From an uncultured Gemmatimonadales bacterium (lineage in GTDB: Bacteria > Gemmatimonadota > Gemmatimonadetes > Gemmatimonadales > GWC2-71-9): a DNA stretch of 64,000 nucleotides. The notes beneath the pieces were generated by a model. That model had not been told where the DNA came from. It searched no databases and saw only the letters and a list, made by a program, of their open reading frames with translations. The first letter of the stretch is position 1; each line of letters starts with the position of its first letter. Shown piece by piece: positions 13,958 through 58,784 of this stretch. The position numbers were made by a program, and so were the translations under genes. Where the stretch lies: contig CAWGSK010000013.1 of the NCBI GenBank assembly GCA_963825055.1, forward strand, positions 32,001-96,000, written 5' to 3'.

Positions 13958-14044
13958 CGGACAGGGTGGGATTCGAACCCACGAGCCCCGTGAAGGGCCA
14001 CACGCTTTCCAGGCGTGCGCCTTAAGCCACTCGGCCACCTGTCC
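13958..14044 (-). tRNA. tRNA-Ser(GGA)
   Basis: GGACAGG acceptor stem, TGGCCGAGTGG D-arm, anticodon loop CTGGAAA, long variable arm, GGTTCGAATCC T-loop; CCA not encoded. Confidence 0.95.
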
Positions 14045-49396: not shown

Positions 49397-50068
49397 TCAG
49401 CGGAAGGTGACGAACTCCTCGAGCGACTTCTTCGTGATGACGGGGACCACCGCGTCGTCGGCGGGATACCCGACGACGAGCACGAGAAAGGCCCGGTCGG
49501 TGGGCGGGCGCTCGAGCAGGTCGTTCAGGAACCCCATCGGGCTCGGGGTATGCGTGAGCGTCGCCAGGCCCGCATGGTGCAGGGCCGTGATGAGCATCCC
49601 CATGGCGATGCCCACCGACTCACTCACGTAGTAATGCGGTACACGGTACCCTGCCGGGTCCAGGCCGTAGCGCTCACCGAAGACGACGACGAGAACGGGC
49701 GCGGTTTCGAGGTAGGGCTTGTACTCGTCCGTGCCGAGGTGCGCCAGCGCGTCCAGCCAGGTCTGGGGCGCCCGGCCGTGATAGAACGCATGCTCCTCCG
49801 CCTCCGCCGCCACCCGGATCCTCCGCTTGAGTCCCGGATCCGCGACCACCACAAAGTGCCACGGCTGCAGGTTGGCACCGCTCGGCGCGGTGCCCGCCGC
49901 CCGGAGGCATTCCTCCAGCACCTCCCGCGGGACCGGCCGGTCACTGAACTGGCGCACGCTCCGTCGCCGCTCCAGCTCCTCACGGAAGCCCTCCGCCCTG
50001 CGTCGCATCTCCTCCTCGGGGTACTCGCGCCAGGTGTCCAGCGGCCGGAACTTCGGTGCTGCGCTCAC
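49397..50068 (-). CDS. Nitroreductase-family protein, iodotyrosine deiodinase-like
   Basis: [49 protein letters not shown] overlap with the upstream gene. Confidence 0.85.
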
Positions 50069-52170
50069 CGGCCTGGCTCCAGGAGCGCGATCGCCGCCCG
50101 GACCCGCTCCGCCGCCCTGGACACGCCACGCGCCAGGTCGGTGACCTCGTCCCGCGCACGCGCCTGGTCCCGGTCCTCCTGGGCTTCGGCGATGCCCGGC
50201 AAGGCAATGTCCGCGTAGCCATTGTTCCGGTCTGACGCGTACAGCAGGTTGCGCCGCCAGGGCCGGCCGACCAGGCCCTCCGGACGGGACATCGCCGGCT
50301 CCACCTGGCGAAGCGTACCATTCACCCGGGCCAGCAACCCGCGAGGGACGCCAGCGGTAGCCAGTCGGGCGAGACGCGCCCGGTTGAGGGACTCCCCTGC
50401 GTCGGTAAGCAAGGTGATCGCGGCATCCAGCGAGTCGTACGGCAACGCCCACCCGAGGCTGTCGGCCGCACGGCGGGATGTCGCGGCCAGGTCCGCCAGG
50501 CGCCGGCCCAGGACCGCATAGTCGAAGGGCTCCACGTCCGCATTGGCCAGCCGGGACATTGCCACGGCGACCAGGCGACCGGCGGCAGCATGACTCAGGT
50601 AGCCGGGGTCGCCGAAACGCTCCATCCAGGTCCATGTGTCATAGGCCGCATGGTACACCCCGATCGGCCCTCCGAAGCCCATCTCCAGCGCCGGCATCCC
50701 CAGGTGGCTGTAGAACCCGCCGAAATCGCTCCCGCCTCCCATCACGCCGGGAGTGACGTCCGAACTGTCTCCGGGCTGGCGCGCGTCGCGCCAGGCCTGG
50801 TATACCGACATGGTATCGTCCGGCTGGCGCACCGCCCGCGTCACCTCGCGGATGAATGGATAGAGGGATGGGGTCCCGGCGGCCCCGAACCGGCGCCCGA
50901 ACGCGGACATGTCCTGGTTCAGGTAGGCTACCAGATGCTGCAGCAGGTCGTCCTCACGCGACTCCACCCATTCCGTGCTGCCCACCAGTCCCCACTCCTC
51001 CGCATCCCAGGTCGCGAAGATCACGGTCCGCCGCGGACGCCGGCCCTGGCGTGCCGCGGTTCCCATTGCGCGCGCAGCCTCGAGCAGGCTCACCGTGCCG
51101 CTGATGTTGTCCGCGGCGCCGGGACCCCAGGCATCGCGGTGCCCGCCGGCGATGACGATCTCGTCCGGCCAGTCGGTGCCCCGAAGCCGCCCGAAAGTGT
51201 TGGTGATGGTCTTCCAGCGTCGCTCCTCGGGCTCGAGCCACACCGCAACACGGACGCGTGTCGCCGAGTCACCGACGTGATACCGGAAGGGGAGTGCGCC
51301 CTGCCAGGGCTGCGGCACCGAGGGACCGCCAAGCTGCCCGAGAATGCGCGCGGCATTGCCGTATCCCAGCGGGATCACCGGGATGTGCGCGACGTCGAGG
51401 CTGTCCGGGGGGAGCCGGCGCGCGCCGGACACGGAGGACCACCCCGGTGTGGTCGGGTCCCCATCGGCGTTCAGGATGCTCCCGCGCTGTACCGCGTCGG
51501 GGCCGCGCATGGGGCCGTCGGGATAGACATCCCCACGGAAGTAGCCGTCATCCTGCGGGTCCGAGTAGAGTATCAGCCCAGCCGCCCCATGCGCTTCGGC
51601 CTCGCGCGCCTTGATGCCGCGGAAGCTGCGCCCGTAGCGCGCGATGACCACCCGGCCCTCCACCGGTACCCCGAGCCGCTCGAGTGCCTCGTAATCCTCC
51701 GCCAGTCCGTAGTTCACGTACACCACCGGCGCCGTCACGTCGCCTTCCCCGCTGGACCCGTTCATCGCCGGCCAGATTCCCGACTGCGTGGTGGGATCAT
51801 CCGGCAGCGCAGGCTCATCCAGGCGGAACCGCCTCGGGGCCGCCCCTTCGAGTTCCACCAGCTGCGAATCCGGATAGGGAAGCCAGACCCGGAACGACAC
51901 CCGACTGGTGTCGAGTCCCCAGGAGGCCATCTGCCGCAGCACGTATTCGGCCGTCCGCTGCTGCGCAGGGGTGCCGGCCACGTGCGCCTCGGCCGAGAGG
52001 GCGTGCGAGTGCGTCCGTGCGCTCGACGGATCGGGAACGGAGGTAAGCAGCGCTTCAATCTTCGACTGCTGCGCCCAGGTGGCAGGGGTGAATCCCGCCG
52101 GGCGGTCCTGCGCGACGGCGGGGACGGAGGACAGCACGAAGGCGGCAGCCAGCAGGCCGTACATGCGCAT
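50065..52170 (-). CDS. Secreted M28 peptidase (glutamate carboxypeptidase II / transferrin receptor-like, PA domain)
   Basis: [42 protein letters not shown]. Confidence 0.9.
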
Positions 52171-52229: not shown

Positions 52230-53312
52230 CTACCCCTCCGACTGCCGGGGGCGCCGCCCGAAGGTCATGAGTCGACGCAGTCGCCACGTATGGCGCCCGA
52301 CTGGATGCTCGGCGAGCTCACGCCAGCGCGCTGACGGGCGCGCCGGCCAGAACCGGGACGCGACACCATGCATCCACGCCGAGGGCGCATGCTGGAGCGC
52401 GAGTTGCGCGGCGATCGGTGCCCGTGCCCGGCGACGCTCGAGCCAGGTGCGGGTGCCCATCCATCGGCGAAGCGGGGCCTGGGTCCAGCCGCCCGGGCCG
52501 CGGATCCGTTCCGGGAGGCCGAGGCGCCGGAGATCGTCAGCGAGAATGGCGCCGAGGGGATGGTCGATCTCGGTGTCGCCGAGATGCAGGAGTACGTCGA
52601 GGAGGAGGATGGCCTGCCAGCCCCCGTGGCGGATGTAGTGCCGGATCAGCAGCTCGAGCTCGTGCGCCGGCGACGGAATCCACATCCCTTCGCCCCACGC
52701 CCGCCGGTGGGCGAGCATTTCGGCGGTCCCGGGAGACCCGGCCGAGGGCGGCTCGATCCGCCAGTGCACTTCGAGGATGTCATCCCAGCCGGGGATATAC
52801 GGACGCTGGAACCTGACATGGAACAACTCGCGCGACGGGGACGACCACGGCGAGTAGCCCCGGTCGGTCAGGAAGCGGGTGACCTCCTCCACCGATGCCC
52901 ACGGGACGAGAACATCGAGGTCGCGCGAAGGACGGATGGCACCGGAGCCGTACAGGCGCTCGGCCATCGGCGGGCCCTTCATGACCAGCCACGGAACTCC
53001 GGCGCCCTCGAGCAGGTCACGCATCTCGGTGAGCTGCGCGGCCCCGCGCTCCGCGGCGAACCCCGCCAGCCCGACCGCCCGGGCGATGTTGCGGTACGGT
53101 GTCTCCGGGAGGGAACGCAGGTCGGGACCGAGCAGTTGCGCGGCCAGGGGCGCCAGGCGGCTCACCTCGACGTCCACCGCGCCCGCTGCCCACTCCGCCG
53201 GTTCGGGCGAAGCAGCCGGGAGGCCCAGGGCGCGGTGAAGCGTCCAGACGAGGAACGGGTGTTCCCTCTTCAGTGGGCGGCGGCGGCCAGGCAACGTGCG
53301 ATCTCCTCCCAT
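52230..53312 (-). CDS. Nucleotidyltransferase family protein (NTP_transf_5-like), putative lasso tailoring enzyme
   Basis: MKGP..AERLY...RPSRDLDVLV and EVHWRI; start uncertain (53312 or about 53273). Confidence 0.8.
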   Translation of the reverse strand: MGGDRTLPGRRRPLKREHPFLVWTLHRALGLPAASPEPAEWAAGAVDVEVSRLAPLAAQLLGPDLRSLPETPYRNIARAVGLAGFAAERGAAQLTEMRDLLEGAGVPWLVMKGPPMAERLYGSGAIRPSRDLDVLVPWASVEEVTRFLTDRGYSPWSSPSRELFHVRFQRPYIPGWDDILEVHWRIEPPSAGSPGTAEMLAHRRAWGEGMWIPSPAHELELLIRHYIRHGGWQAILLLDVLLHLGDTEIDHPLGAILADDLRRLGLPERIRGPGGWTQAPLRRWMGTRTWLERRRARAPIAAQLALQHAPSAWMHGVASRFWPARPSARWRELAEHPVGRHTWRLRRLMTFGRRPRQSEG

Positions 53313-54136
53313 GCGTTCGACATCTGCTCCAGGTTCCCGGGCACGGTCAATCGCCAGACGGGCACGGCGGCGGCGAGCCCCCCGACCAGGTCGTGCCAGG
53401 CCGGGGTGGGCTCGGACTCCAGCCAGGAGAGGAATCCAGCATCAACCATGCCGGGGAGACGTGCAACCCCGCGCAGGGCTTCACACTGGACCTTCGAGCC
53501 CCTCTGGAGCAGGAACAGGCCGCGGAGGAGGCCCGGTTCCCCGGCCGGGAGGTCGTACCATCCCCGGCCGTCGGGAAGGACGAGCCTGGGCGACCAGTCC
53601 TGCGGGGCGAGCTCGGGGGGAACCCGCAGCGACCCCGGCAGAGGCAGGATCCCCGCTTTTCCGTCCAGGGCAAGGAGGTCATCCCCCCGGACAGGCCAGC
53701 CGTGTCTCGTGGCCAGCCCCGCGAGGGAGGACTTCCCACGCCCGGACGGGCCGGCGATCGCCACTGTCCCTCCCGGGGTTTCGAGCCCAGCCGCATGGAG
53801 CGGGTAGCATCCAGCGGTGGCGATGGTGAACGCCGTCAGCGGCCCGGTGAGCCGGGTCAGGTGCGCCGGCGAATGTGGATCATGGCCGGGGTCAATACTG
53901 AACCGGAGTCCGCCATCGAGACGGACCTGGTATCCGCACCCGTCCGGGTACCGCAGACCCCATCCATCCGGAAGGCGCCAGACCGCGGAGCGCCCCTGCG
54001 GCGTATCCGCATGGCGAACCGCCCGAGGATCCGGTGCGACGGCAGAACGCTCGATGATCGGAAGGGGGAGCCCAAGCGCCGCGGAAAGCGCGCACCACGC
54101 CGCCGACGGATCGGGCGGCGACGGGGCGAGAGGCAC
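53270..54136 (-). CDS. HPr-kinase-like lasso peptide kinase
   Basis: LHAA + GPSGRGKSS (Walker A) + GDD; starts 8 nt after the precursor stop. Confidence 0.8.
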   Translation of the reverse strand: MPLAPSPPDPSAAWCALSAALGLPLPIIERSAVAPDPRAVRHADTPQGRSAVWRLPDGWGLRYPDGCGYQVRLDGGLRFSIDPGHDPHSPAHLTRLTGPLTAFTIATAGCYPLHAAGLETPGGTVAIAGPSGRGKSSLAGLATRHGWPVRGDDLLALDGKAGILPLPGSLRVPPELAPQDWSPRLVLPDGRGWYDLPAGEPGLLRGLFLLQRGSKVQCEALRGVARLPGMVDAGFLSWLESEPTPAWHDLVGGLAAAVPVWRLTVPGNLEQMSNAWEEIARCLAAAAH

Positions 54137-54144
54137 GGAGGAAA

Positions 54145-54291
54145 TCAGCTGCCGAACGCTCCGTCGCTCACGTTGAGCCCGGCCCCACGGGTCAGGTCCT
54201 GGACCCGGCCCAGCGTTTCGAGCCGGGGGGGCTCGAACTCACGGCGGGGTTCGGGACGTTTGCTGTCAGGAGGACGGGACGTGTCTGTCAT
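54145..54291 (-). CDS. Lasso peptide precursor (48 aa; predicted core GAGLNVSDGAFGS)
   Basis: GAGGT RBS; leader FEPPRLETLGRVQDLTR matches (Y/F)xxPxLxxxGxxxxxTx; Gly1, Asp8, C-terminal Ser. Confidence 0.85.
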   Translation of the reverse strand: MTDTSRPPDSKRPEPRREFEPPRLETLGRVQDLTRGAGLNVSDGAFGS

Positions 54292-55696
54292 GGGCGACCT
54301 CACCAGGGGAATGGTGCACTTCCACGAAGTGTAGTATGCCGAGTCCACTCCATTGGGTCAAGAAATCGTCGTGCAGGTCAGCCGGCGTGATCCGCCGCGG
54401 AAGCCACGGGATCTCCAGCTGTTCCTGCAGCCGTTCCCAGTCATCCACCATCGCCTGCGCCTCGGACATCACCCGCTCCCTGATCCAGAGGGAAAGATCC
54501 GCCTTGTCCACCCGACGGACAACCGGCGAGGGTAGGTGCGGTGCGACGGCCTCGCGGAGCAGGGCGCGTGGGAGCCAGCGCGAACCTACCCGAGGACACC
54601 GGAACCCGGCGACGGCTTCGATGACCCCTCGATCCAGCATCGGCAGGGCGAGCTCGAGGCCCGCCCGGCGAACGGTGGCCGCGGCCATCCGGGTCCGCCA
54701 CGCCAGACGGGGATCAGCAAGCGTGTGACGGAGCGCCGCGTGCCGCCAGCTCCCCGCAGAGGCGGCGGCCCCTCCGTCGAGCCCGAGCCGGGACGGCCGC
54801 ATCGCGCTCAGGACACCCCGGCCGAGCGTGCGGAGTGCGCCGGCCCGCCGGCGGGCGAGACGGGCCCGGAGCGCGACGGCCGTACCGGCCAGGATCCGGC
54901 CACTCCTGAACAGGTCCACCTCCAGGCCCCGTTCCGCGAACACCTCATCGCCCCCGACACCCCACGCCATGCCCTGGCACCCCGCGCGCCGGGCCAGCGC
55001 GCCGGTGGCGGCGTGCACGGCCTCCATGGCGTCCACCAGGGGCGAATCTCCCCGGGCCATGGCTGCTGCGGACGCCGGCCAGAGCAGCAGCCCGGCGGCA
55101 TTCACGGTTGCGAGTTCAAGGCCGAGGTGCGCGGCGACGGCGTCCTGCCACTCGGACTCGTCGCAAGCCAGGCCGGGAAATCGTGCCGAGACGAGCAACG
55201 GAAGCGGCGCGGCCTCACGCCTCGCGGCCTCCGCCGCCGCGGCCGCGAGCGCTGACGAATCCAGGCCGCCGCTCAGTGAAACGGCCATCCGGCCCGTCGC
55301 AATCACGTGCCGCTGCATCGCCCCCACGAGCGCCTCCCATACCGATTCCGTTGCATCGCCGGGAACGGGAACGGACCACCACGTCATCGGGGAGCCGTGG
55401 GGCTGGCATTCACGCCCGCCTGGGACACAGGTCACGTCGCGGAAGGGGGACAGCCCGGTGAAGCGTAACGCGGCGAGATCCTCGAGCACGTCGAGGTCGG
55501 GAACGGCGCATGGGGTGAGTCGCGCGAGTCGTGCCGGGTCGAGCGCCAGATGGAGGTGGGGGCCGATGCTGCGCAGGCATGCGAGGGGATATACCGGGGC
55601 GGAACGCACGACCGGCCCCAGGGAACCATCGAGCCATCCGGGGTCCGCGCCTGACGCGAGCCCGGGGTCGTGGAGAACGATCCGGGCGGAGGTCAA
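54266..55696 (-). CDS. Asparagine-synthetase-like lasso cyclase (C protein) with a shortened N-domain
   Basis: SLSGGLDSS PP-loop, GVGGDEVF, LPMLD, RALLREA..LP..V..R.DK; no N-terminal Cys. Confidence 0.85.
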   Translation of the reverse strand: MTSARIVLHDPGLASGADPGWLDGSLGPVVRSAPVYPLACLRSIGPHLHLALDPARLARLTPCAVPDLDVLEDLAALRFTGLSPFRDVTCVPGGRECQPHGSPMTWWSVPVPGDATESVWEALVGAMQRHVIATGRMAVSLSGGLDSSALAAAAAEAARREAAPLPLLVSARFPGLACDESEWQDAVAAHLGLELATVNAAGLLLWPASAAAMARGDSPLVDAMEAVHAATGALARRAGCQGMAWGVGGDEVFAERGLEVDLFRSGRILAGTAVALRARLARRRAGALRTLGRGVLSAMRPSRLGLDGGAAASAGSWRHAALRHTLADPRLAWRTRMAAATVRRAGLELALPMLDRGVIEAVAGFRCPRVGSRWLPRALLREAVAPHLPSPVVRRVDKADLSLWIRERVMSEAQAMVDDWERLQEQLEIPWLPRRITPADLHDDFLTQWSGLGILHFVEVHHSPGEVAHDRHVPSS

Positions 55697-55983
55697 CGGG
55701 GCGCCGCCCGGTGGAGAAGCCCCTGCTCCACCAGGCTACGGACAATGCCGGTCAGCATCTCCCAGCGGGCGTGGCCGTCGACCGGCCACGCCGCCAGGCC
55801 CCGGTCCACCTCGCCCAGGTCCTCGCCACGCGCGAGCGCGGCCCAGACTTCTGCGCCGGACCGGTTCAGGCTGTAGTAGGTCCCGGCATCGAGATCGAGG
55901 AGGACCAGCTCGTCGTCCAGTTCCCGGCTGCGCACCGCGGGAGCCGGCACGAACCGGTCCCCGCGCGCAAGGGGTTCCGGCAT
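55693..55983 (-). CDS. PqqD-family RiPP recognition element (lasso B1/E)
   Basis: ELDDELVLLDLDAGTYYSLNRSGAEVW...LVEQGLL. Confidence 0.9.
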   Translation of the reverse strand: MPEPLARGDRFVPAPAVRSRELDDELVLLDLDAGTYYSLNRSGAEVWAALARGEDLGEVDRGLAAWPVDGHARWEMLTGIVRSLVEQGLLHRAAPR

Positions 55984-55987
55984 GATG

Positions 55988-57499
55988 TCAGGGAATCTGG
56001 CCGGTGACGTCCCAGATCATCAAGGCCGGGCTGGAGGGATTCTTCGCGCCGAACACATACACCCGCCCCCCGATGTACCCGAAGGTGGCCGTGTGAATCC
56101 CTGTCGGGACCATGTAGGACGTGATCCGCGTCGGGCGGAGCGGATCGGCCAGGTCATACAGGTAGATCCCCGAGCCGGTGCCGTTTTCACCGCTGAAGAG
56201 CAGCATCCGGCCATCACGCGACACCTCGACATCGCTGATGGTGATGATGCCGGAGGTGAGGATCGAGTCCGCAAGGGTCGGCGCGCCGGTGGCATCCAGC
56301 TGCCAGATCTTGAGTGCGTTGCCCGAATTCGATGGCCCGCCCGACGCGCGCAGTCTCCAGGTCCCCGTGTAGGCCACTCCGCCGTGCACCCAGAGGTCGG
56401 ACGTGAACCGCTCGGGCACGTTGCCACCGCCAGCCACCCTGGAGAGCACCCCGCCGTTCGACGACAGCTGGTAGAGTCCGTTCAGCATGTCCGTGGCGTA
56501 GACCGAGCCGTTGTATTCCTGCACGCCCCAGACGTAGGTGCTGTCAGGATTCGGGGGGAAAAAGCTCAGTACCCTGCTGTTCAGGCTCCCACTCAGGACG
56601 CCGGAGATATCCAGCGCGAGCACCCCGCCATTGTAGTAGGCGGCATAGAGGATTTCCGCCTGCTCGTCCACCCAGAAGTTGTGCGTGCCGAATCCGCTGC
56701 GATGGAACGTCGCGACCTGGACCGGCTTCCGCAGGTCGGTCACGTCCAGGACGAAAATGTCACCCGACGCCGCGGTACCGATGACGCCCGGACCCTCCTG
56801 TCCGAGGAAGAGGTACTTCTTCTCCCCGGTGTTGGGATTGTGGAACCACCACGAATTGTGCACCGCGCCGCCGCTCACCCCGACCGTACCCGCGAGCACG
56901 GGGGTCGAGGGACTTCCGCCCACGATACCGTTGCCGACGTCGTAGATCCGCATGCCGCTGTTCCACGCGCTCACGAACGCGAGGCCATCGCGCACGAAGG
57001 TGTCGTGGATGCCGTAGTTGGGCGGGATGGCGACCTGTGCGACAAGGACAGGCCCGGTGGTCCCCACCGACGTGACCGTGAAGCTCACGGCGGTCATGGT
57101 GGCATCGGTATTCGCCAGCGACGGCGCGCTCGCCTGGACCTTGCTGGTCAGGGTTCCCGTGCCAAGGCGCACCGTCATGTATGCCTTCCCGTCGGCCCCG
57201 GTGCTGGACTGGCTCGAGTCGACCGTCGCGTTCCCCGAGGTCACGCTCCACTGGACCGGTACACCGGCGAGCGGCGTGCCGGAGGTGTCGCGCGCCAGTG
57301 CGGCCAGCGGGGTGGGAAGCACTGCTGCTTCCGGACCCTTCTGGTGGTTTCCTCCTCCGATCGACAGCACCTGGCCGCTTCCGGCCGGGGACGGCGGTTG
57401 CGAGGGGTCGTTCGGGCCGGTGGCTGGTGCATCCGACCTGCACGCGGTGACAACCCCGAGCAGGACGAGCGGAAGGAAGGCATGTCGCATTCGTGGCAC
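55988..57499 (-). CDS. Lipoprotein with an Ig-like domain and LVIVD-like beta-propeller
   Basis: Lipobox VTAC; GVPVQWSVTSG..TGADGKA; repeats HDTFVRDGLAFVSAWNSGMRIYDV and HNFWVD..LYAAYYNGGVLALDI. Confidence 0.75.
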   Translation of the reverse strand: MPRMRHAFLPLVLLGVVTACRSDAPATGPNDPSQPPSPAGSGQVLSIGGGNHQKGPEAAVLPTPLAALARDTSGTPLAGVPVQWSVTSGNATVDSSQSSTGADGKAYMTVRLGTGTLTSKVQASAPSLANTDATMTAVSFTVTSVGTTGPVLVAQVAIPPNYGIHDTFVRDGLAFVSAWNSGMRIYDVGNGIVGGSPSTPVLAGTVGVSGGAVHNSWWFHNPNTGEKKYLFLGQEGPGVIGTAASGDIFVLDVTDLRKPVQVATFHRSGFGTHNFWVDEQAEILYAAYYNGGVLALDISGVLSGSLNSRVLSFFPPNPDSTYVWGVQEYNGSVYATDMLNGLYQLSSNGGVLSRVAGGGNVPERFTSDLWVHGGVAYTGTWRLRASGGPSNSGNALKIWQLDATGAPTLADSILTSGIITISDVEVSRDGRMLLFSGENGTGSGIYLYDLADPLRPTRITSYMVPTGIHTATFGYIGGRVYVFGAKNPSSPALMIWDVTGQIP

Positions 57500-57509
57500 G
57501 GAAGCCCCG

Positions 57510-58784
57510 TCAGTGGTGAGTCGGTGAGGGCGAGAGCAGGCCGTAACGACCCATGCGGTGCATCGGGCCGCCGGCGGTCAGGCGGACGCCAAGCGTGAGC
57601 GCCTCGAACGACTCCCGGCCATACAGCCCCTCAACCGTAAAGACGCCGCCCCCGACCTTCCGTGCACGCCCGAGGGAGACCTCGCCGAACGGCTCCGCCG
57701 CGAGCCAGGACAGCGGTTCGAAACGAAAGCCATAGCCGACCGTGTGGATGGTCCACCGGCTGGTCCCGAGAATGGAGTTCTCCCGGTGGGGGCGGAGCGA
57801 GCGGAACAGGTCGGCGGTCCGCTCCTCCTCGGGACGCGAGGTACGCTCAAACCGGTACCAGGCCTGGTGCCGGCCCGGGCTCACCGCCGCCTCGACCAGC
57901 ACCGTGTGAAAGACGAAGAAGCCGTTGAGCTCCGAGTTGCGGGCCCACTCGGCCATGGCGTACACCGGCACGCCGAGCGCCGGACCCTTCCAGCGCCCCG
58001 AGAGGCTCCACTTGCCCTGGGTGCTGCCCGCCCCCGGGCGATGCTCGGGAGACTTCACCTCCGCGTGCGATCCCTGCAGCTCCAGGCCCGTGACCGGTTG
58101 CACCAGCAGCCTGGCGGACCAGGAGTCCCCGAATCGCTCCAAGCTGGGCCATTGCCCGGGCCGCTCCGGTTCATCGCCGTTGAACAGCCCCGCCTCGAGC
58201 GACAGCGGTCCCAGGCCGACGGCCGCAATCGCGACCGCACGCTCCAGAATCTGGCTCCAGTGGTGGTTCACCGGATACCGGAGCACGGGGCGGTTCATCG
58301 GGTCGTCCGTCCCGTACGGCGCGAACCCTTTCCCCACCGTAACGGAAGTGTGGAAGGGGCCCTGGCGGTTGCCGAACGGGTCCACGAGGCTCGCCAGCAG
58401 TTCGTGCACGTAGGTGTGCGGGTGGCGGCGGTCGACGAATCCCTCGCCCCAGATGCCGGGATCGAGCTCGCCGCCGGGCATGGTCCAGCCCTCGGCGTTC
58501 CCGGTGGCGGTGAAGCGGAGCCGCCCCCCGAGGACCCCGGCGTGCAGCATGAGGACGGGCTGCACGACCCTGATCTCGTCCAGCGCGCGGCCACCGGGTA
58601 TCGGATTGACCCGGGTCCAGGACGGCACGGCCTGGGCCCGCACGCGAAACCAGGCGTCAGGCGCCTGGGCGCTCGCCGGAGGCGACGTCAGGACCAGGGC
58701 CAGAAGTGCGACTGGCAGGCCGGCCGGGTGGGGGCGCGGCAGGAGGGGGGGCATCGTGACTCCGGAGTCCGGGAGGGGCGACAT
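57510..58784 (-). CDS. Exported hypothetical protein, probably outer-membrane, with His-containing motifs
   Basis: Signal peptide (PASAQA); DRRHPHTYVHEL, NHHW; alternating beta-strand pattern. Confidence 0.65.
   Translation of the reverse strand: MSPLPDSGVTMPPLLPRPHPAGLPVALLALVLTSPPASAQAPDAWFRVRAQAVPSWTRVNPIPGGRALDEIRVVQPVLMLHAGVLGGRLRFTATGNAEGWTMPGGELDPGIWGEGFVDRRHPHTYVHELLASLVDPFGNRQGPFHTSVTVGKGFAPYGTDDPMNRPVLRYPVNHHWSQILERAVAIAAVGLGPLSLEAGLFNGDEPERPGQWPSLERFGDSWSARLLVQPVTGLELQGSHAEVKSPEHRPGAGSTQGKWSLSGRWKGPALGVPVYAMAEWARNSELNGFFVFHTVLVEAAVSPGRHQAWYRFERTSRPEEERTADLFRSLRPHRENSILGTSRWTIHTVGYGFRFEPLSWLAAEPFGEVSLGRARKVGGGVFTVEGLYGRESFEALTLGVRLTAGGPMHRMGRYGLLSPSPTHH

Follow-up and report, generated by a model that had tools for sequence, protein, structure and literature searches.

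A lasso-type peptide cluster of a Gemmatimonadales bacterium has no leader peptidase of its own and may depend on a lone B2 gene on another contig

The window analysed here is a stretch of 64,000 nucleotides (nt) from an uncultured Gemmatimonadales bacterium (G000:C13:32001-96000, G000 being our handle for its 3.5 Mb assembly, 87% complete with 6% contamination), and it contains a compact cluster of five genes for a ribosomally made peptide that is modified after translation (RiPP). Judging from sequence comparisons, we put at about 0.6 the probability that this is a lasso-type pathway without a peptidase of its own, that its product would be a 13-residue phosphorylated and perhaps glycosylated macrolactam resembling pseudomycoidin, and that the leader would be removed in trans by a B2 peptidase encoded alone on contig C9. 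The five genes are real and intact, and the recurrence of their order and of a conserved precursor in seven further loci is beyond chance. The pathway would work in the manner of pseudomycoidin and is not a canonical, self-contained member of the lasso family.

All five genes lie on the minus strand at the place and in the order described in the initial annotation of this DNA, and the sequence motifs quoted there are present. The RiPP recognition element (RRE) or B1 protein of the PqqD family (55693-55983, 96 aa) is the sole PF05402 match of the genome (30.5 bits, cut-off 23.4). It is followed by a short AsnB-fold macrolactam synthetase, the putative lasso cyclase (54266-55696, 476 aa; PF00733 81.8 bits, cut-off 21), which starts with TTG and has a 4-nt overlap with the RRE stop. 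The precursor gene (54145-54291, 48 aa), whose NF033521 score of 19.0 bits equals the cut-off, overlaps the cyclase end by 26 nt, and a gene for an HPr-kinase-like peptide kinase (53270-54136, 288 aa) begins 8 nt past the precursor stop. The last gene encodes a PsmN-like nucleotidyltransferase (52230-53312; PF14907 87.8 bits, cut-off 31.2) of at most 360 aa, counted from the first ATG; its true start is uncertain, as orthologues set in 10-14 residues further on. The three hidden Markov models (HMMs) proposed as a check, PF05402, PF00733 and PF14907, are therefore all above their cut-offs, and the reading as a lasso-type cluster with kinase and nucleotidyltransferase holds. Contigs of four DNA runs from one study span the region piecewise and are 99% or more identical over parts of all genes, with no frameshift-type difference between those contigs and the window. 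None of the listed sequencing runs with the region is RNA, and this listing of DNA and RNA runs has no bearing on expression. The GC content of the cluster does not differ notably from that of its flanks.

Cyclase orthologues (E<=1e-14) were found in 6 of 400 genomes of the family (G033, G064, G088, G150, G194 and G228, from three genera); they occur in four of the five genomes of genus g78 and on one metagenome contig, L193, and in none of the 214 genomes examined from two further families of this order. All eight loci run RRE, cyclase, precursor, kinase; the transferase then follows in six of them and in G194 is found on an adjacent contig fragment. The synteny comparison suggested with the initial annotation thus gave an identical gene order and a conserved precursor in seven further loci, and the small open reading frame, for which a lack of conservation was to count against the claim, is kept in 8/8.

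The precursor consists of a 35-residue leader, with Phe-17, Pro-14, Leu-12 and Thr-2, and a 13-residue core, GAGLNVSDGAFGS, with a predicted Gly1-Asp8 ring, a tail of five residues and a terminal Ser. Of the leader motif YxxPxL...T described earlier everything is present save the first residue, which is Phe and not Tyr. The masses that had been calculated by hand (about 1132.5 and 1212.5 Da) are right, our own values being 1132.515 Da for the cyclised core and 1212.481 Da with one phosphate. Across the eight loci every precursor has the RRE-type leader motif and Thr-2, residue -1 varies (Arg in 4/8, otherwise Leu, Gln or Asn), and every core has 13-15 residues, with Gly, Ala or Ser first and Asp at position 8 or 9. 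Two subtypes can be distinguished: GAGLNVSDGAFGS, GTSGLESTDAIFGS, GTGLITTTDGFFGS and GSGSVTTTDGFFGS have a five-residue tail and end in Phe-Gly-Ser, and SFLPGSSTDFTLTSF, AFVPGNDVDFTMTSF, AFEPGTNTDFTMSSF and AFVPGNNTDFTMTSF have a six-residue tail and end in Ser-Phe. The orthologous cores are 14-15 residues long with Asp9, and the core of G000 is one residue shorter, with Asp moved from 9 to 8 and the tail unchanged. Its length is at the bottom of the 13-33 residues published for lasso cores (PMC13352647), and it has the small first residue and the Asp within positions 7-9. It is doubtful that a tail of five residues is threaded, unless modification turns the Ser into a plug; if it is threaded, Phe11 and modified Ser13 are predicted to be the sole candidate plugs.

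The cyclase carries SGGLDSS at residues 141-147, and since this SGG loop lies near 141 instead of the usual position near 260, about 120 N-terminal residues are missing, the Cys1 position included. Seven aligned orthologues have 476-508 aa with 30-40% identity to the G000 protein, and they keep the ATP-binding motifs SGG-x-DS, G-x-G-G/A-D and R-x-x-K as well as Mg-binding-type motifs; complete clusters of relatives have cyclases of 630-650 residues, so that the 476 residues found here are about 150 fewer. The best profile matches are weak and include AsnB and an albusnodin/ikarugamycin macrolactam model. Sequence searches gave AsnB (1ct9, the best), a hydroxyamidotransferase and beta-lactam synthetase as nearest solved structures, and an AlphaFold2 model of the cyclase reached a pLDDT of 83 and a pTM of 0.85. 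A grouping with true AsnB or exopolysaccharide (EPS) amidotransferases had been named beforehand as the result that would speak against a lasso cyclase. In a quick tree of 43 proteins, ten short cyclases instead form one clade (support 100) on a long branch, outside the 15-row AsnB/EPS clade (support 100), and the tree gave no supported grouping of the short cyclases with any lasso-cyclase set. The protein shares with the AsnB and EPS amidotransferases (TIGR01536, TIGR03108) the PF00733 domain and the SGGLDSS loop, but differs from them in lacking the Cys1 glutaminase domain, in scores far under the cut-offs (54.5 bits against 267 for TIGR01536) and in its separate clade. When the single cyclase was scanned as a query against the genome contigs, one weak and unrelated match was the only result. 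A further PF00733 protein of G000 is a full-length AsnB-type gene on contig C1. Two identical-scoring PF00733-like matches of equal reading-frame length, at G000:C12:200302-200565 and C25:1159-1422, suggest a duplicated or doubly assembled stretch, which fits the 6% contamination estimate.

In the kinase, His114, Lys135, Asp152 and Asp153 are invariant across six aligned orthologues, and Asp131-x-Asp133 of the transferase is invariant across five; the His-Lys-Asp-Asp set and the Asp-x-Asp motif are residues published as essential (PMC9266682, PMC6993621). Against HMMs the kinase gives just HprK-related matches below threshold, and a comparison with the kinase of a complete lasso cluster gave 97.6% probability. 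A second, short kinase-like gene is present in G088. The paeninodin-type enzymes PadeK, ThcoK and SyanK have been described as His-Lys-Asp-Asp kinases acting on the C-terminal Ser, in clusters with a split B1 as here (PMC9266682); the window differs from these in having no B2 or exporter in the cluster and in that half of its orthologous precursors end in Ser-Phe, which is a poor fit with strict specificity for a C-terminal Ser. The window core ends in Ser, but this is not universal: four of the eight cores, those of the window and three orthologues, have Ser at the end. The pseudomycoidin (psm) cluster of Bacillus pseudomycoides is like the window in its RRE, macrolactam synthetase, Ser-ending precursor, HPr-like kinase and PF14907-type transferase with Asp-x-Asp, and in a possible bulky C-terminal lock; it is unlike it in carrying a B2 gene and an ABC exporter, of which the window has neither (PMC6993621). 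The window, in turn, departs from psm in its 13-residue core with a five-residue tail and in its cyclase, shorter by about 150 residues than those of complete clusters in relatives. Unmodified pseudomycoidin has been described as a branched cycle, with the modified C-terminus proposed as a thread lock (PMC6993621).

A B2 peptidase is found inside the cluster neither in the window nor in the seven orthologous loci, and no ABC exporter is among the genes called near the cluster in the window. RRE, cyclase and leader, which had been taken to define a lasso cluster, do not amount to a complete lasso pathway while B2 is missing from the cluster. Because B2 is absent, heterologous co-expression of the five genes, as proposed earlier, would probably lack the cleavage step. 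A genome-wide search of G000 gave one PF13471 match above cut-off, the lone B2 gene at G000:C9:103464-103871 (76.7 bits; NF033537 68.9, cut-off 33), which retains Cys64, His98 and Glu110. Its start overlaps the stop codon of an M48 peptidase gene, and it is convergent with a gene that we take to be a uracil-DNA glycosylase; over about 8 kb around it neither an RRE nor a kinase or cyclase was found. Six-frame profile searches of G000 found a single RRE, B2, kinase and transferase each of such types; a motif scan found one precursor of the window leader type, with 33 further loose-pattern matches that look like chance. No second RRE or second precursor that B2 could serve, one of the cyclase-less type described below included, was found by these profile and motif searches. 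No solved structure matched the B2 profile by sequence. Among the 120 B2 homologues listed, seven are organism-named, and six of those are labelled Gemmatimonadota or Gemmatimonadales.

Five of the six relatives with the cluster have exactly one B2, on another contig. It stands behind the same M48 gene in G064, G088, G150 and G194, and in G033 it lies between genes that are presumably selA-like and purN-like. The remaining one, G228 (81% complete), has its contig break within the M48 gene, the one that stands before B2 in five genomes. The five M48-linked B2s are all in genomes with a window-type lasso cluster, and in their 10/10 gene pairs third codon positions are the most variable; in cyclase genes third positions vary more than first and second in 6/6 pairs, and this excess is as expected under selection on proteins. 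It is because the lone B2 is the sole copy in G000 and co-occurs with the cluster in relatives that we regard it as the probable peptidase of the cluster. Near the lone B2, variable insertions between a vWA-domain gene and a glycosylase-like gene were seen in three relatives (L113:4708-6787, L114:9879-10274 and L111:312-1000), and this site seems to take up small genes.

The origin of such a peptidase may be sought in its clade. With the G000 protein as query, 64 of 401 genomes have a B2 of its clade (E<1e-13), and all 64 contexts were examined. In 53 of them B2 is directly behind the RRE, and the operon comprises precursor, kinase, RRE, B2 and in most cases a transferase, with no cyclase within the fetched flanks (1.5-8 kb). 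The other 11 hold B2 alone, six being the genomes with the window lasso cluster and five belonging to genus g11; a B2-less RRE cluster accompanies the lone gene in ten of the 11, namely the lasso type in the six and another type in four of the five from g11. These four g11 genomes carry an RRE-kinase-transferase cluster without B2, the fifth being 73% complete; counterparts of this cluster in G012, G022 and G031 carry B2 behind the RRE, and G161 (g11) holds both a full B2 operon and a B2-less cluster, an intermediate state. A quick B2 tree, from which a contig-end B2 of G290 was left out, placed lone B2s and those of cyclase-less operons in one 65-row group (support 98), with 23 others apart. 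Window-type and cyclase-less precursors have a common leader spacing, with an aromatic residue at -17, Pro-14, Leu-12 and Thr-2. Cyclase-less cores are different: of 46 precursors from 29 of 39 loci, 28 have Ser at core position 2 and just 14 have Asp or Glu at 7-9. The simplest history would be that one B2 served two clusters, that the B2-less cluster persisted and that the donor operon was lost save for its B2.

The cyclase-less operon, present in 53/401 family genomes (L064-L067, L070-L072 and L119-L174; for example L066:2147-4795 in G027), is often beside Wzm/Wzt-like ABC genes and combines a shared leader with highly variable, Gly/Ser-rich cores; we read it as a family with B2 that resembles the linear polyphosphorylated peptides (LPPs). 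The LPPs of Bacillota resemble the window in having an RRE, an HprK-like kinase and a nucleotidyltransferase acting on a lasso-like leader, and they show that such pathways can share genome and leader motif (PMC13381572). They differ in using a signal-peptidase-like protease and having no cyclase, whereas the window has a cyclase-like gene and no such peptidase in the cluster; the donor operon of the lone B2 is a closer analogue of the LPPs than the window is, and the LPPs are the nearest described cyclase-less system. The g11-type cluster described above is another RiPP-like cluster (L267:4785-11280 in G311, also L265, L266, L268 and L301), with a precursor whose core ends in Gly-rich ...TVF and with genes for RRE, kinase, transferase, a radical SAM enzyme and both large and TolB-like propeller proteins; its copies in G012, G022 and G031 (L077-L079) include a B2, those in g11 do not.

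How the precursor would be transcribed is indicated by a promoter-like site, TTGACC and CATACT separated by 17 nt (54333-54361, minus strand), in the 3' end of the cyclase gene. A fixed sigma-70 scan found it, 41 nt ahead of the ATG of the precursor, as the one site in 7 kb (0.3 expected, which by itself is not significant). The motif TTGAC-N18-CANNNT recurs 34-47 nt before the precursor start in 8/8 loci (in G088 counted to an upstream ATG), inside the cyclase gene in four and at or past the cyclase stop in the other four. In G000 it occurs 39 times on 7.07 million strand-bases and stands 30-50 nt before 4 of 2433 called genes, a frequency that is generous because the exact motif was derived from the same eight loci. 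It precedes none of the 46 cyclase-less precursors and was not found before the M48-B2 genes. That it is kept both within and outside coding sequence suggests that precursor, kinase and transferase have a real promoter here.

The proposed pathway can be set out as follows. Precursor, kinase and transferase would be transcribed from their own promoter in the cyclase 3' end, where the motif is conserved. The RRE, from what is known of its family, would bind the Phe-x-x-Pro-x-Leu leader, and the kinase, by analogy with PadeK, ThcoK and PsmK, would phosphorylate Ser13 on the linear precursor. The distant B2, as sole copy and regular companion, would cut after Thr-Arg (-2/-1), and the short cyclase, whose motifs are in place, would activate Asp8 by adenylation and join it to Gly1 to form the ring. 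The PF14907 enzyme, following PsmN, may add a hexose or a nucleoside monophosphate (NMP) to the phosphate, and export, if any, would use a transporter encoded elsewhere. A more far-reaching version, possible though on the whole rather unlikely, would combine a peptidase captured from an unrelated RiPP family without cyclase, whose operon was otherwise lost, with a minimal 13-residue lasso and a shortened cyclase: the tail would be held between Phe11 and a phospho-sugar plug on Ser13, and in the Ser-Phe subtype Phe would be the lower plug and a penultimate or internal Ser/Thr would be phosphorylated.

Several findings weigh against the proposed pathway. On the side of the cluster, the transferase is absent at the G033 locus (a statement about the locus, as PF14907 was not searched genome-wide in G033), the G000 cyclase has Arg376 where six aligned orthologues have Lys, and it scores 35.6 with the lasso-cyclase model NF033535 against a cut-off of 525, with 218-365 for the cyclases of three complete clusters of relatives; the 4/8 cores terminating in Ser-Phe instead of Ser belong here as well. 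On the side of the peptidase, B2s of this clade are common in the family (64/401), in the quick tree the G000 copy stands apart from the four further M48-linked ones, so that synteny alone unites them, and the cluster RRE falls outside the native partner lineage of B2 (no tblastn match at E<=1e-4). The genomes are also kin, and the co-occurrence amounts to about three independent events, not eleven. Finally, with G000 at 87% completeness and 6% contamination, a missed or foreign gene is possible.

An alternative is a cell in which the same macrolactam is made while a general host protease removes the leader, or the core is freed non-specifically, and the lone B2 does some other job. Pseudomycoidin forms without B1 and B2 in E. 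coli, which also counts against a need for B2 in the proposed pathway, and a cyanobacterial cluster without B genes is mentioned in the same source (PMC6993621); lanthipeptides matured by unclustered general proteases have been described (PMC8960859). The leader ends in Arg in 4/8 precursors, an M28 peptidase gene follows the cluster in G000 and G033, and B2 itself is coupled to an M48 peptidase gene. However, Thr-2 and a full RRE-type leader are retained in 8/8 precursors, the variability at -1 is unlike the preference of a trypsin-like host enzyme, the M28 gene is an ancestral neighbour and several orthologous loci do not have it next to the cluster, and the searches of G000 offered no other RRE or precursor for B2 to serve. 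We consider this explanation unlikely.

It is still less probable that no ring is formed and that, as with the LPPs, a phosphorylated peptide of linear form results, the shortened AsnB-fold enzyme being inactive or carrying out some other adenylation chemistry. The loss of about 120 N-terminal residues, the long branch, the weak profile matches with AsnB among them, the very short tail and the derivation of B2 from a cyclase-less pathway would all agree with it, but the ATP-binding motifs are kept in seven aligned orthologues, the predicted cyclase fold is well formed, and an acceptor Asp at 8 or 9 with a small first residue is present in 8/8 cores, the shift of Asp in G000 leaving the tail unchanged. 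That the cluster is a decaying remnant which lost its peptidase and exporter and makes nothing seems very improbable to us; the patchy occurrence (6/400), low HMM scores, a transferase lost from the G033 locus and lack of an exporter would be expected of a remnant, but not frames that are all open in orthologues just 30-40% identical, third codon positions that are the most variable in 6/6 cyclase pairs, or a promoter-like motif in 8/8 loci whether inside or outside the coding region.

The proposed trans-acting B2 has to be seen against what has been published. The gene set is of a described type (paeninodin/pseudomycoidin), and the macrolactam, phosphate and hexose chemistry is of known kinds. 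Lasso clusters have been counted, not characterised, in marine Gemmatimonadota metagenome-assembled genomes (PMC11316326), and the earlier statement that no characterised lasso peptide of this lineage is known agrees with our search of the open full-text literature, which leaves subscription papers and supplements outside its scope and gave none from the phylum. In the same literature no lasso cluster is described that uses a distant B2 from another RiPP class. Lanthipeptide clusters with unclustered proteases (PMC8960859) are like the proposed pathway in being matured by a protease encoded elsewhere, and unlike it in RiPP class and protease families, the distant enzyme proposed here being a dedicated B2 from another RiPP operon. 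If the proposed pathway is true, B2 peptidases can be shared between RiPP classes and retained as lone genes, genome mining that requires B next to C would overlook or misread clusters of this kind, and the cluster by itself would probably give no product in a heterologous host. The system would also provide a compact test of C-terminal phospho-glycosylation as a lasso thread lock, since the core has almost no other plug, and would offer a naturally shortened cyclase; no biological activity can be inferred from it.

The surroundings of the cluster speak to its boundaries. In six relatives' genomes it stands behind one shared upstream gene, which in the window encodes a Big_1/choice-of-anchor-B-like protein (55988-57499, minus strand) that is not in the pathway; of 300 family genomes 88 have this gene, and most of them lack the cluster. 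Among 30 loci examined, three have this gene directly followed by the M28 gene (50065-52170, minus strand, adjoining the cluster in G000 as in G033), all three without the cluster; the cluster is therefore an insertion between the two, and the boundaries in the initial annotation are those of the insertion. The Big_1/choice-of-anchor gene and the gene preceding it were rejected as cluster members, as the cluster is behind them in just 6/30 loci, and M28 was set aside as leader protease, being an ancestral neighbour that is unlinked in several orthologues. A protein of 424 aa that matches nothing in Pfam or NCBIfam (window 57510-58784) pairs with the 55988-57499 gene in many family genomes, and here this pair sits behind succinate dehydrogenase genes. 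No Rfam family was found near the cluster, the sole match of the window being a tRNA gene elsewhere (13958-14044, RF00005).

Some further genes recur around the orthologous loci. In five of them the cluster is followed or interrupted by genes for sulfatase-family proteins whose N-terminal parts are hydrophobic (L089:8034-11386, L093:10554-12778, L090:3823-5577, L092:9503-11158 and L193:4350-7450), two of these calls being confirmed by NCBIfam and the others made by resemblance; G000 has sulfatase homologues elsewhere, five of them in tandem on C34. A further RRE/kinase/PF14907 locus is present in three relatives (L115:6251-11604 in G150, L116 in G064 and L262 in G033), together with what we take to be a signal-peptidase-like reading frame and ferritin-like genes, and L262 has a short precursor-like reading frame at 1289-1438.

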